Of a DNA stretch of 44,065 nt, positions 13,476-32,726 are shown piece after piece. The position numbers and the translations under genes are program-made. Below the pieces are notes generated by a model. The model was not told the origin of the DNA. It did no database searches and saw only the letters and a program-made list of their open reading frames with translations. The stretch is from IMG/VR virus record IMGVR_UViG_2778261088_000003, one strand, 5' to 3'. This stretch comes from a virus. Taxonomy: Duplodnaviria > Heunggongvirae > Uroviricota > Caudoviricetes. Position 1 is the stretch's first letter, and each line of letters begins with the position of its first letter.

Positions 13476-13505
13476 ATATTACACTAATAAATTTATTAGA
13501 GCAAT
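13476..13505 (-). promoter_or_regulatory. C1-type operator (13489-13505) overlapping a sigma70-like promoter (TTGCTC-N17-TAATAT)
   Basis: AAATTTATTAGAGCAAT is the exact reverse complement of the P1 C1 operator consensus; the -35 TTGCTC lies inside it and TAATAT follows after 17 bp on the minus strand. Confidence 0.6.
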
Positions 13506-15760
13506 ATACCCAAAACGTCATGAGCTACACCTCGAGTGTCCCCCTTACAAGACACAGAACGTCTGGCAAAAAGAGGTTCCACTCTGAAGCCACTGTCATG
13601 ATAAAGCTCTCTGATGTTTGGCGCGCCACTGTTAGTAATGAGAACCTTTGCACCTCGACGATGAGCATCCGTCAACAGAGACACCAGGCGTTTTTGCTCT
13701 TCAAACTTAAAGTCATGACCGGAATAGTTCGTGAATCCCTCTGTATTTGGAAGCGGTTCATATGGCGGATCGCAAAAAATGACATCTCCTTCTCCGGCAG
13801 CTTCAATTACCGCAGCAAAATCACCACATACAAACTCAGAACGCCCTTCCGCACCGAGGAAGGCTTCCATCTCCTGTAATGGGAAATACGGAGTTTTATA
13901 CTTCCCATAACCGACATTGAACTCACCGGCCTGGTTGTAACGCGTCAATCCGTTAAAACAATGTCGGTTCAGGAACAAAAACGCCGCTGCGCGATGTAAA
14001 TCATCATAGACTTGTTTGTTAAACGCATTCCGTACTGCCAGGTATCCTTCCTGTGTGTTGTAGTCCTGGAAAAACCGATGCGCCAGTGTGATAAGTGAAT
14101 TCGCCTCGCGTTGCAGAGTCTTGTAAAAGTTAATCAGGTCAGCATTCACATCATTTAGCAGATTTTCCTGGTATCCGGCATTCGTGAAGACAGCTCCGCC
14201 ACCGACAAAAGGTTCGATCAGGCGCTTCCCTTCTGGCAAATAGCGAAAGATTTGTTCCAGAACACCAAATTTTCCACCAGCCCATTTGAATATGGACCGT
14301 TCGAATTCTGCCGCTGGTTTAACTTTTCGCTCTTTTGTTTCACTTCCTTCTTTCTGCCGACATACGGCCTTAGTAATCCGATCGCCAATCCAGCGCATTA
14401 CTGGTATTGCCATACTATTGCCGATCGCTTTGTAACGCGGTCCGTCAGCTGCAAGCATCGCGGCCTCTTCTTCGCTTAAATCTGGATAGTGATTGTGCAG
14501 ATATGCCAGTTCATCTGAATTAACTTTTTTACGCTTTTCCGTAGGGATCAACGTATGCCCATCAGGAAAACCTTGAAGTCTCTCACATTCGACAGGGGTA
14601 AGACGGCGGACAGCTACTTCTTCGTTTCTTACTTCATAGCAAACAGCAGTTGGATTTTGAGCCATTAGAGATGGTGAAGTATTCTTAGTTGCTGCATGTT
14701 GTGTACCACTCATACGCTCAGGAAAAGCCAATGTAACAAGATGCTCATGGCTTTCTTGCTCACGCGCCCGCAATGTACCATGCCCTTCTGACCAAAAACC
14801 TGCTCCAGTGCTGCTAAAAACGGCAAGGTCAGTGGCATCTTTAAAGTCTCTTGCCTTTACTGTCGATGCGGTTTCATCGTCAATATATTCCCCAAATGCC
14901 GCCATCCTGAAACCGTTTACGGCTTTCGTCGATTTCATACCGGGGGACATGCCAGCGTGTAGGCATGGATTTAGGCTTTCGCCACTGATTGCAGCGCCAT
15001 TTGCAGTAATGGCGGAAGCGATTTCCTTCTTTTTTCGGCTCGGCGCAATATTCCGGCGCACGCCTTCGAACTCAAAAAGTACCGTTGCGGGATCGAGGTC
15101 TGTTCGAGCACTTGCGACAACAAACACGCGTCGGCGTCGTTGTGCCACTCCGAAGTATTGGGCATCAAGGATTCTCCAGGCCACCTTTCGCTGCGGTCCA
15201 TAAATACAACCACACTGCGGCCACTTTGGAACATGGCAACCGGTTTTGCCATCCCACCGCCAGAACGCGTTGCTTTTTCCTGATTCAGGTCGATCACCTG
15301 GTTCAAATGGCACATCTTCTCCAGCCAATCCGGCAAGGAAACATCCGAAGGCGTTATCTGCCGAAGACAAGACTCCTGGGACATTTTCCCAGACGATAAC
15401 GGCTGGTTTGAGAAATGACTCAGCCCGTTTGTCGTCAATTGCATTTGCAAGCTCCACATACTTTAAAGTTAGCGCGCCACGCTCATCATCAAGCCCACCA
15501 CGTAATCCCGCGATACTGAATGCCTGACAAGGTGTTCCCCCGACGAGCACATCAGGGGATTCGATTTCCCCAGCCAGGACTTTTTTGGCAAGTTTTGTCA
15601 TGTCGCCAAGGTTGGCGACATGGGGCCAGCGGTGCGCAAGAACGGCAGATGGAAAAGACTCGATTTCAGCAAACCACACCGGACGCATACCCAACGGTTC
15701 CCAGGCAATACTCGCGGCTTCAATTCCACTGCAAACAGATCCATAGCACAGCTCTTTCAC
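13496..15760 (-). CDS. dmt: bifunctional DNA methyltransferase (N-terminal C5-cytosine MTase, C-terminal Dam-family N6-adenine MTase)
   Basis: N-terminal [11 protein letters not shown] and ENV motifs; C-terminal KWAGGK and DPPY motifs; 754 aa. GTG start overlaps the rdgC stop (GTGA). Confidence 0.9.
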
Positions 15761-16662
15761 TGCTTAGCCTCTCCACCAAGGGCATTTACCAGAGCATCAA
15801 CCAGGCACGAAATTTCACTGGTCAACAGGAAGAAATCTGCGTCCAGTCGCTGCGCAACATCTTCACTATCAATATCAGAGTTCTGCTCAAGCAATTCATC
15901 CGCAAATTTGACGCTGGTAAGGCTGAAGTTATGGTCCAGTGTAAATTTAATGCGGTTCTGCCAGTCGAGTGCCAACTTAGTGACGAGCTTGCCAGCTTCC
16001 AGGTGTGTGGAAATTTCATCGCTTCCCAAATCCTGCTTTTTCACCCGGGCAATACCGCCATCCTCAAGCACTGCCTTAAGTTCTGCCGCATCCCCCATTT
16101 GAAATCCCTGTGGAGCACTACCATCACGTACCCAGTCGGTCAGCGTTAATTCAATGGGATTTTCAACACTCAGGGGAACAACAGGAAGAGAACCCAGAGA
16201 CTTACGCATAAGCGCGAGCATATCCTCTGCCTGCCGCGCGCTGGCATTGATATAGATACGTTTAGTTGAACCGTCGTAGATCGCCTGGATAACAGAAAAC
16301 TTTGAAAAAGCCCGTGGCAGAAGAGAATGCAGAACTTCGTCTTTCAGGGAGTCCTTCTCTGTTTTCTTCAGTTTACGCGCTTGTTCTTGCTCAAGTTTTT
16401 CAATTTTTTCTTGAATAGCTCGCTGGATAACCGGCGGGGGAAGAATTTTTGTTTCGCGCTTTGCTTCAACAAGGATAAAACCATTTCCATGCATAGCGAT
16501 AACTTCGGAATTATCACCAAATGGAGATACAAAACCGAACTTGGCCATATCCTGACTACCGCATGGCGTGAAAAGGATCATTTTCTTTTTATCTTCTAAG
16601 TCGGTCAGATCCGCCTCACGAGAAAGTTTATAAATAGTAATGTTTTTCCAGTGCTTAAACAT
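15757..16662 (-). CDS. rdgC: recombination-associated protein RdgC homolog (P1 HrdC-like)
   Basis: From [13 protein letters not shown] onward collinear with E. coli RdgC, including [11 protein letters not shown] and [26 protein letters not shown]. Track start 16776 is an upstream extension. Confidence 0.9.
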
Positions 16663-16939
16663 GTTGTAACCCTTGAATATCAACCACAGAAAGCTCGTCT
16701 TTGTAGAAAAAGGCCAGGTTGTGGCACCCCCTCGTTTGAGCGTATGAGCTGGGACCAATTTCGTTCTTCCAGACAAATGGCTTCAAATCCGTACGGCGAA
16801 GCATAAAAACGCGATTTGTTCCGCTCTGATTCCCAATGAGGCAAAAGCCTTCTTTCACCTTGATAGCCTGCAAGTTGTCGAGTTCACCGCTGGTTACACG
16901 GCTATCGAACTCTTTGCGGCTTATTAGCTCCATCTGCAT
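16655..16939 (-). CDS. hypothetical protein upstream of rdgC (uhr-like position)
   Basis: ATG 16939 with GGAG 7 nt upstream; the longer track ORF (TTG 17011) would overlap the operator/promoter. Confidence 0.45.
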
Positions 16940-17010
16940 CTGACGACTCCAAACAAATGCCCATTGAAGGGCGATGGCTGAATGGTACCGAAAATACGAC
17001 ATAAAAAACA

Positions 17011-17027
17011 ATATTTATTAGAGCAAT
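17011..17027. promoter_or_regulatory. C1-type operator (ATATTTATTAGAGCAAT), divergent control region
   Basis: 16/17 match to the reverse complement of ATTGCTCTAATAAATTT; upstream of the uhr-rdgC-dmt operon. Confidence 0.65.
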
Positions 17028-32177: not shown

Positions 32178-32395
32178 AAACCCCCCTGAACGTCGGCAGA
32201 GAAGGGGAGGCTCCAGTAACTAAGTGAATTGCGCGAGTTAGTTGAAAAACGGGCAGTAAAAATGCAGGGGCCATCAGGCAATTGAGAGCGTGCTTCGTCT
32301 TCTGTTGCTGCGATAACGAAGTGATAGTGGTGTTTTTTACAGGAATAGAAACGCCAGATGAATTCTTGGCGTGCGCAAGGATTGGCATTAACCAT
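32174..32395 (-). CDS. icd: Icd-like small protein (73 aa)
   Basis: 73-codon ORF between the c4 region and ant, overlapping the ant start, as in P1 immI. Confidence 0.55.
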   Translation of the reverse strand: MVNANPCARQEFIWRFYSCKKHHYHFVIAATEDEARSQLPDGPCIFTARFSTNSRNSLSYWSLPFSADVQGGL

Positions 32396-32449
32396 AGTTA
32401 CGGCCTCACTAACAGGTTTAACAACCTGCTACCCGCTGCTAAACAGGTG

Positions 32450-32530
32450 GCAGGACGTGACGGGGTTAGCAGACTGGCGTTAGTGAAACCAGCAGGCCGA
32501 AGCCTCCCCATCACGCCCCACCATAATTTG
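32450..32530 (-). ncRNA. c4: c4-like antisense repressor RNA (approximate bounds)
   Basis: Segment carrying CACTAACGCC and TCTGCTAAC, complementary to paired target motifs upstream (32578-32603) and downstream (32404-32444). Confidence 0.45.
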
Positions 32531-32709
32531 GGCGTAACGCGGTTTTACGGACACAAAAATACCGCAATATCGGATATCTGCGGTTGTCCGCACTAACATT
32601 CAGGCTGCTAAACCCGGTCGCAGAATTTGCTACGACGGCGGAACTATAAGCCTGAACGATTAAAAGGTCAATATGATGCGAAAAGATAGCATTCGCGACT
32701 TAAAAATAC

Positions 32710-32726
32710 AAATTTATTAGAGCATT
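32710..32726. promoter_or_regulatory. C1-type operator (AAATTTATTAGAGCATT) for the immI operon (Op51-like)
   Basis: 16/17 match to the consensus reverse complement, upstream of c4-icd-ant. Confidence 0.7.

Follow-up and report, generated by a model that had tools for sequence, protein, structure and literature searches.

We consider it very likely that the 44,065-nucleotide stretch of viral DNA analysed here (the window) belongs to a P1-like plasmid prophage, and that its repressor sites are the C1 operators of P1, each placed differently at its own promoter. BLAST onto the P1 record AF234172 gave collinear blocks in reverse orientation, with 96-99% identity to P1 and P7, and the mapping covered P1 coordinates of approximately 37.1-81.8 kb. 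In the P1 record c1 is located at 93.2-94.1 kb, beyond the P1-equivalent span of the window, and from synteny with P1 the element would be expected to encode its cognate C1. Of the C1 modulators Lxc, Coi and Ant, only ant is encoded within the window.

The C1 operator consensus is ATTGCTCTAATAAATTT, with 22 operators in total (PMC8546580). A sequence-only reading of the window had listed four perfect or 16/17 matches to it, all of which are present, on the minus strand (the first four lines below).

13489-13505, minus strand: Op72a (Obana), ATTGCTCTAATAAATTT, 17/17; equals P1 68667-68683, protein_bind 'phage repressor C1'
17011-17027, minus strand: Op68 (Odmt), ATTGCTCTAATAAATAT, 16/17; equals P1 65145-65161
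31048-31064, minus strand: Op53 (OrepL), TTTGCTCTAATAAATTT, 16/17 (P1 record)
32710-32726, minus strand: Op51 (Oc4), AATGCTCTAATAAATTT, 16/17; reads AATGCTC
3344-3360, plus strand: Op82 (O26), ATTGCACTAATAATTTT, 15/17, matrix score 23.8
13478-13494, plus strand: Op72b (Obanb), ATTACACTAATAAATTT, 15/17, matrix score 19.6
2437-2453, plus strand: Op83 (Oppp), CATGCACTAATTAATTT, 13/17, matrix score 18.5
29283-29299, minus strand: remnant of Op55 (Orlf), 5' 11 bases ATTGCTCTAAT only, matrix score 7.0

A scan of the window allowing up to three mismatches found six matches where 0.14 were expected, and none of 100 shuffled sequences reached six. The weight-matrix scan that had been proposed earlier was run with a matrix built from 11 P1 operators lying beyond the segment of P1 to which the window is homologous; it recovered the four named sites and three more. 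All seven had scores of 18.5-27.2, and the best of the remaining candidates scored 9.5. All seven are identical to P1 sequences annotated as 'phage repressor C1' protein_bind sites at the same positions. The alternative that the motif recurs by chance in AT-rich DNA, or as a repeat with no role in repression, has nothing in its favor except the AT-richness of the motif, and given the excess over expectation, the gap in matrix scores and the identity with annotated P1 operators its probability is close to nil. The operators and their downstream promoter regions were also nearly invariant in approximately 80 related contigs per locus.

Promoter positions rest on GenBank annotation and on our own crude scoring. 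A generic promoter scanner is blind to promoters embedded in these operators because TTGCTC matches TTGACA at three of six positions, and we therefore wrote a simple sigma-70 score. The P1 record distinguishes a 'sigma 70 promoter' from a 'predicted sigma 70 promoter'. The annotated P1ban, Pdmt, PkilA/P53, P2c4/P51a and P1c4/P51b are all conserved in the window, where they rank first or close to first among the sigma-70 candidates at each site.

At the ban operon, Op72a overlaps the dmt stop codon and supplies the P1ban -35, TTGCTC (13504-13499). Op72b is inverted and overlaps Op72a by 6 bp, giving the bivalent operator Op72ab, which according to the P1 record 'controls expression of ban'. It spans most of the P1ban -10, TAATAT (13481-13476). 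The layout TTGCTC-17-TAATAT is annotated in P1 without the word 'predicted'. Op72b was absent from the sequence-only list.

13288-13469, minus strand: predicted first P1ban transcript, approximately 180 nt, from a putative start site
9505-12826, minus strand: remainder of the ban operon downstream of Op72ab (P1 record, Pfam), comprising the following
12751-12826, minus strand: tRNA-Asn
12673-12748, minus strand: tRNA-Thr
11507-11941, minus strand: tciA, TerB (Pfam)
listed between tciA and the CAT tRNA, minus strand: tciB and tciC
11157-11232, minus strand: tRNA with anticodon CAT, trnI in P1
9505-10875, minus strand: ban, DnaB-type helicase (Pfam)

The genes upl and plp are interspersed within this operon on the opposite strand. 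The P1ban leader, previously described as a candidate small RNA, is the region annotated in P1 as 'dicF-like', and its 3' end carries a GC-rich hairpin followed by U6 (13314-13297). Rfam gave no DicF match to the leader RNA even at E = 1, and its fold was not clearly better than that of shuffled sequences (z = -1.6), and we set aside its identity with DicF. C1 bound to Op72ab as a two-site, palindrome-like target would cover the P1ban -35 as well as its -10.

Op68 lies upstream of the genes for an RdgC-family protein and a methyltransferase.

16982-17011, minus strand: Pdmt as annotated in P1, -35 TTGTTT (17011-17006), 18-bp spacer, -10 TACCAT (16987-16982)
16655-16939, minus strand: uhr (P1 record)
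15757-16662, minus strand: hrdC, RdgC family (Pfam)
13496-15760, minus strand: dmt, C5-cytosine and D12 N6-adenine methyltransferase domains (Pfam)

The -35 of Pdmt starts at the last base of Op68, such that the operator abuts the promoter with a 1-bp overlap, and Pdmt was the best-scoring sigma-70 candidate at this site (7.0). C1 on Op68 would occupy approximately -52 to -36 from the putative start, just upstream of Pdmt and touching its -35. The prediction that the methyltransferase and RdgC genes are under lysogeny control matches the known Odmt/Op68 unit, with the families as given by Pfam; that Op68 controls the methylase was already published in 1989. Op68 was nearly invariant in approximately 80 related contigs while the sequence upstream of it was variable. 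Among P1-like phages HrdC identity is 95% or higher, and in unrelated phages it falls to 80% or lower. Diverged plasmids with hrdC-dmt (L165-L167) carry these genes behind tail genes and have no P1-type operator there, with a weak site (10.8) at the end of dmt; with that arrangement they were uninformative as a guide to Op68 or Op72.

In contrast to the abutting arrangement at Op68, the P53/PkilA -10 (TCTAAT, 31059-31054) lies inside Op53, and the overlap of Op53 with P53 has been stated previously (PMC9948254).

31077-31082, minus strand: P53 -35, TGGATC (P1 record), upstream of Op53
30178-30978, minus strand: kilA, lytic replicon, Pfam KilA
29303-30148, minus strand: repL, lytic replicon

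The P1 record notes that OrepL/Op53 'controls expression of kilA and repL'. Three conserved GATC Dam sites lie just 5' of Op53, one of them within the P53 -35. C1 on Op53 would cover both the P53 -10 and the start region, with the -35 being a Dam site. Of 511 matching plasmid records, 510 had the Op53 region at 95% identity or more, and no diverged DNA homologs of it were found among the 511 plasmids.

The immunity region immI is arranged differently again, with one promoter at the edge of Op51 and a second one downstream; here the P1 record OP279344 is the same as AF234172 by sequence comparison. Mutations of P1vir offered no guide to the promoter positions, as they are published with no coordinates.

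32683-32711, minus strand: P51a (P2c4 in P1), -35 TTGTAT (32711-32706), 17-bp spacer, -10 TATCTT (32688-32683)
32643-32671, minus strand: P51b (P1c4 in P1), TTGACC-17-TATAGT, near consensus, score 14.2
31143-32649, minus strand: immI operon (Rfam, Pfam, P1 record), comprising the following
32597-32649, minus strand: a1/b1 target sites (Rfam)
32443-32528, minus strand: C4 antisense RNA (Rfam)
32174-32395, minus strand: icd (P1 record)
31143-32177, minus strand: ant1/ant2, Pfam Ant

The P51a -35 overlaps the 3' end of Op51 by 2 bp (sigma-70 score 8.75), and P51b is 39 bp downstream of Op51, outside the operator. From this position and from the P1 literature, P51b is probably constitutive. C1 on Op51, at approximately -50 to -34 from the putative start, would overlap only the edge of the P51a -35 and would leave the stronger P51b free, such that C4 antisense RNA would be made in lysogens and icd and ant would be kept off. 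As P51b lies beyond Op51, control of the c4 operon by C1 is probably only partial. C1 is reported to repress the c4-icd-ant operon, with C4 RNA needed as well (PMC8198154).

The weaker 15/17 site that had been suggested at 3344-3360 is present, and is annotated in P1 as O26/Op82. It lies upstream of the late promoter LP26 and of the tail and baseplate genes 26-25-7-24-6-5. Op83 and the truncated Op55 did not appear in the sequence-only list; homology to P1 ends inside Op55, and a hok/sok segment is next.

The sequence-only reading had proposed that all four sites share one promoter design, with the TTGCTC of the operator as -35 and a hexamer 17 bp further on as -10, which would amount to a single promoter-operator cassette used four times. 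The spacing was borne out, as TAATAT, TATGTC, TAAGTG and TAAGTC lie exactly 17 bp after operator positions 2-7 at Op72a, Op68, Op53 and Op51, and at Op72a the proposed promoter is P1ban itself. The P1 record predicts a like layout for PpmgR at Op86a and for P2pmgT at Op88, and a T-run followed by TA at this fixed distance is present in 8 of 20 P1 operators, where 0.4-0.7% would be expected, for a pattern that was chosen post hoc. However, TTGCTC is found at three of the four sites, with ATGCTC at 32710-32726, and only TAATAT is a credible -10 (A2, T6); TATGTC, TAAGTG and TAAGTC do not have the conserved T at position 6 (-10 scores of -1.3, -2.6, and -2.6). Among candidates around the operators the proposed promoters ranked 1st, 18th, 13th and 111th at Op72a, Op68, Op53 and Op51, and at the last three sites their combined scores were 1.6, 0.3 and -3.5, compared to 7.0, 5.2 and 8.75 for the annotated Pdmt, P53 and P51a, which the P1 record places on other hexamers. 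Natural variation also argues against the cassette: the proposed -10 at Op68, TATGTC, reads TGTGTC in seven natural relatives, with loss of the key A at position 2, whilst the annotated TACCAT was unchanged in 48 distinct natural variants. This Op68 position is the only one at which the polymorphism maps decide between promoter models, and the relatives that HrdC and KilA searches recovered from viral contigs were all 98-100% identical. The shared design thus stands at Op72a and is not supported at Op68, Op53 and Op51, and we regard a single reused cassette as very unlikely.

A compromise, in which a weak embedded TTGCTC-17-TAnnnn promoter sits beside the main one and C1 shuts off a pair of overlapping promoters together, would fit the two overlapping predicted promoters that P1 lists at Op88 (P2pmgT and P1pmgT), the two at Op72 (P1ban and P2ban) and the recurrence of the extended motif among operators. 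Against this, the embedded promoters at Op53 and Op51 score at background level, and we think it unlikely that both layouts are used. In the extended motif, positions 19-25 form a T-run and TAAG, TAAA or TATG comes next; it is found 3' of approximately 8 of 20 P1 operators and, in the window, at Op51, Op53, Op68 and Op83, whereas Op99d and Op72a have no T-run. It is conceivable, if doubtful, that the functional site for C1, or for a C1-Lxc ternary complex, is approximately 29 bp rather than 17, or that these operators arose by duplication of a single promoter-operator cassette with a weak embedded promoter that is still active. The extension may be the one mildly new point, and it is the sole lead here that may be of specialist interest.

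Separate placement of each P1 operator at its own promoter, the reading that we prefer, leaves the proposed regulon intact: the tRNAs, tciA and helicase, uhr-rdgC-dmt, kilA-repL and c4-icd-ant agree with the P1 operator assignments, and the gene identities with Pfam (RdgC, C5 and N6-adenine methyltransferase, DnaB helicase, KilA, Ant and TerB). At the sequence level, the operators overlap or abut conserved sigma-70 promoters reading into lytic-cycle genes. Operator identity with P1, conserved annotated promoter hexamers and gene identities are what we observed; operator positions relative to transcription starts are estimates. In a lysogen, C1 encoded outside the window would bind each 17-bp asymmetric site and block the overlapping or abutting sigma-70 promoter. 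The units kept off would be the ban operon (leader RNA, tRNAs, tciABC and DnaB-like helicase), uhr-hrdC-dmt and kilA-repL, and as a fourth the C1-sensitive promoter of c4-icd-ant. Binding of C1 to the identical P1 sequences is given by the protein_bind annotation of AF234172 and by the title of Citron et al. (1989), and thermal inactivation of C1.100 induced ssb, dmt, kilA and ban, listed as C1-controlled, as measured by rt-qPCR (PMC4713147). The four operators and their regulon are therefore long-known P1 biology that is already published. The P1-like plasmid prophage appears to keep the standard P1 immunity wiring, which has little import beyond correct annotation; the corrections are that there is no common promoter layout, that the ban operator is bivalent and that the c4 operon has a promoter outside its operator.

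P1 (AF234172/NC_005856) shares the seven operators with the window, identical in their 17-bp sequences and alike in order, strand and neighboring genes, under the names Op72ab (Obanab), Op68 (Odmt), Op53 (OrepL), Op51 (Oc4), Op82 (O26) and Op83 (Oppp), and the hexamers of its annotated promoters recur in the window unchanged. Differences between the element and P1 lie elsewhere: a recombination junction truncates Op55, a hok/sok module stands in place of rlfA-rlfB-pmgF, par and sim are represented by non-P1 alleles, and ban and dbn are separated by an insertion of 270 bp. P7 and many P1-like phage-plasmids from Escherichia and Salmonella, which are mosaics related to each other, are 97-99% identical to the window over the region, and their operators differ from those of the window only in rare single-base variants; the closest listed record spanning the whole region is the plasmid NZ_CP069885.1 (98.7% identity). 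Beyond this group, PMC1934351 describes temperate mycobacteriophages such as L1 and L5 as having one repressor and many dispersed asymmetric operators in place of one symmetric operator cluster, as does P1 with C1. The repressor protein and the motif are unrelated to those of P1, and the likeness would be one of logic only.

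Scanning the whole window for C1 operators with up to 3 mismatches gave 6 matches; shuffles that preserved dinucleotides predicted 0.14, and none of them reached 6. A weight matrix trained on 11 operators from parts of P1 that are not homologous to the window set apart 7 sites (scores 18.5–27.2) from all other window sites (9.5 or below). The sequence-only reading had placed four operators and a weaker 15/17 site here; all were present and among the 7, the four on the minus strand and the weaker one on the plus strand.

C1 operator sites in the window
13489-13505, minus strand: Op72a, ATTGCTCTAATAAATTT, 17/17 consensus match
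17011-17027, minus strand: Op68, ATTGCTCTAATAAATAT
31048-31064, minus strand: Op53, TTTGCTCTAATAAATTT
32710-32726, minus strand: Op51, AATGCTCTAATAAATTT
3344-3360, plus strand: weaker site (Op82, O26 in P1), ATTGCACTAATAATTTT, 15/17
13478-13494, plus strand: inverted operator overlapping the Op72a site, sixth match in the mismatch scan
2437-2453, plus strand: extra site (Op83, Oppp in P1), added by the weight matrix
29283-29299, minus strand: truncated operator (Op55, Orlf in P1), matrix score only 7.0

Op55 is cut at a homology breakpoint, retaining its 5' 11 bases (ATTGCTCTAAT) followed by CTGGAG instead of TATAAC; given the fall in its score, a working Op55 has probably been lost from the element together with the rlf genes of its name. 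Random sequences drawn from a first-order Markov model of matching composition held a mean of 3.2 sites scoring at least 10, a level reached in the window by the seven true operators only; near-operator sequences may be avoided, on marginal evidence (Poisson P ~0.04).

The region was 97–98% identical to phages P1 and P7, and many plasmids of Escherichia and Salmonella matched it at 98–99%. Relative to AF234172, the GenBank record of P1, it runs in reverse orientation (approximately P1 81,810 to 37,114), with 96–99% identity across the collinear blocks and a few segments replaced. We observed that the record has C1-binding sites at homologous places with 17-mers identical to the window operators: Obana and Obanb (formerly Op72a and Op72b; "divalent ... 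controls expression of ban"), Odmt (Op68), OrepL (Op53; "controls expression of kilA and repL"), Oc4 (Op51; "controls expression of c4"), O26 (Op82) and Oppp (Op83). In P1, c1 occupies 93.2–94.1 kb, which falls past the window's left end, so we infer the repressor itself for this element. In AF234172 we also noted a minor annotation slip: Omat/Op2b (2628-2645) is given as 18 nt on the minus strand, yet it is the plus strand that reads as the operator, CATGCACTAATAAATAT.

ORF, tRNA and RNA, and Pfam searches upheld the genes proposed behind the four operators. Op72ab is followed by tRNA-Asn, tRNA-Thr, tciA (TerB), tciB, tciC, a CAT-anticodon tRNA (trnI in P1) and ban (DnaB N- and C-terminal domains); Op68 by uhr, hrdC (RdgC, E = 6e-98) and dmt (C5-cytosine and D12 N6-adenine methyltransferase domains); Op53 by kilA and repL; and Op51 by the a1/b1 targets, C4 antisense RNA, icd and ant. 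The identity of the operators and the regulon are as predicted, and both were previously known. A 2021 paper (PMC8546580) quotes the operator consensus and a count of 22 operators; Ronayne et al. (2016; PMC4713147) list ssb, dmt, kilA and ban as C1 repressor-controlled and used rt-qPCR to measure their induction on thermal inactivation of C1.100; the overlap of Op53 with P53 (PMC9948254) and repression of the c4-icd-ant operon by C1, with C4 RNA needed too (PMC8198154), have been restated. Given these P1 reports, membership of the methyltransferase and RdgC genes in the C1 regulon, the headline claim, is established knowledge.

The sole part going beyond annotation was a single promoter design, with TTGCTC of each operator as −35 and a hexamer 17 bp on as −10. 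At all four sites the named hexamer does stand precisely 17 bp past operator positions 2–7, but the fourth operator carries ATGCTC in place of TTGCTC. The design holds at one of the four sites, Op72a; the P1 record, which distinguishes a "sigma 70 promoter" from a "predicted sigma 70 promoter", puts the other three promoters on other hexamers. We observed that the window conserves all the annotated hexamers. All candidates around the four operators were given a simple sigma-70 score, with approximate hexamer frequencies after promoter compilations.

Annotated P1 promoters at the four operators, with sigma-70 score and rank
Op72a: P1ban, −35 TTGCTC inside the operator, −10 TAATAT; 8.0, rank 1 (identical to the proposed promoter)
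Op68: Pdmt, −35 TTGTTT from the last operator base, 18-bp spacer, −10 TACCAT; 7.0, rank 1 (proposed, TATGTC: 1.6, rank 18)
Op53: PkilA/P53, −35 TGGATC (a Dam site) upstream of the operator, −10 TCTAAT inside it; 5.2, rank 3 (proposed, TAAGTG: 0.3, rank 13)
Op51: P2c4/P51a, −35 TTGTAT overlapping the operator 3' end, −10 TATCTT; 8.75, rank 2 (proposed, TAAGTC: −3.5, rank 111)
Op51: P1c4/P51b, farther downstream, clear of the operator; 14.2, rank 1

Position 6 of the −10 is not T in any of the three low-scoring hexamers. Of about 80 related viral contigs, 7 carry TGTGTC at Op68, losing the critical A at position 2, and TACCAT with its surroundings showed zero variation; polymorphism maps of Op72, Op53 and Op51 in these contigs held no informative variation. 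The single promoter design is wrong.

The proposed hexamers are not random. When the 20 annotated P1 operators were aligned with their flanks, information continued beyond position 17, with T in 11–14 of 20 sites at positions 19–25 (0.4–0.9 bit per position). Eight of the 20 (Op21, Op51, Op53, Op68, Op83, Op86a, Op88 and Op99e) have a run of T leading into TA at positions 25–26, against 0.4–0.7% of P1 positions, a contrast whose P value is inflated because the pattern was picked after inspecting the data. In the window the extension (ending in TAAG, TAAA or TATG) lies at 32702-32693, 31040-31031, 17003-16994 and 2461-2470. A second common layout, with the TTG of a −35 starting at operator positions 15–17, explains part of it. 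For PpmgR (Op86a) and P2pmgT (Op88), the P1 record predicts the proposed layout as well. The extension may reflect weak embedded promoters, a longer contact by C1 or Lxc, or descent of the promoter-operator cassettes from a common ancestor.

Most likely, C1 from the gene outside the window would bind each asymmetric 17-mer and block RNA polymerase, with binding and derepression taken from the P1 record and literature. It would do so from four different positions, which we infer relative to the transcription starts: across −35 and −10 at bivalent Op72ab, where Op72b covers most of the P1ban −10; at Op68 immediately upstream of Pdmt, in contact with its −35; at Op53 over the P53 −10 and the start region; and on the −35 edge of P51a at Op51. 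P51b, which we take to be constitutive in agreement with its position outside the operator, would be free of C1, so that C4 RNA would still be made in lysogens, keeping icd and ant off and leaving the c4 operon under partial C1 control.

Two hairpins lie near these promoters. The ~180 nt directly downstream of P1ban (13288-13469, minus strand) end in a strong hairpin with U6 (13314-13297, minus strand; stem GCCCATCTTCGGGTGGGC plus T6), ~170 nt downstream of the inferred start, which closes the P1 "dicF-like region" and resembles a strong intrinsic terminator. A search of the ban leader region gave no Rfam match to DicF. From this layout, either transcripts must pass through the hairpin to cover the tRNAs and ban, or a small RNA would be made here. 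Between ant and Op53, a palindromic hairpin (31105-31134), whose plus strand has a strong T-run, stands where it would end the antisense transcript of P53as, which the P1 record annotates inside kilA.

Segments without a BLAST match to P1 (20687-23064, 32962-34005, 11476-12067 and 43489-44065) fall in the par, sim and tciA regions and tail-fibre gene S. ORF 32796-33470, adjoining the sim gap, had a weak sub-threshold match to PTP-like phytase. A 270-bp insertion relative to P1 separates ban and dbn (9223-9495); its 100-aa ORF (9203-9505, minus strand) had no Pfam match. The place of rlfA, rlfB and pmgF in P1 is taken by a hok/sok toxin-antitoxin module (28670-28994, minus strand; Hok/Gef ORF 28670-28825, PF01848, E = 2e-22; sok RNA 28820-28994, Rfam RF01794, 115 bits), which lies in the replaced segment 28595-29289.

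P1-like elements were all at least 95% identical at the operator loci, and none was diverged enough for footprinting; a P1 record comparison aimed at placing P1vir mutations gave zero differences. A second phage-plasmid group, comprising E. coli plasmids NZ_CP157120 and NZ_CP066033 and Citrobacter NZ_CP099371, carries hrdC-dmt at 67–84% DNA identity, without uhr or a P1-type operator. Unlike the P1-like gene order, hrdC-dmt there lies directly behind tail and baseplate genes, and in the two E. coli plasmids it adjoins a plasmid-borne glnS.
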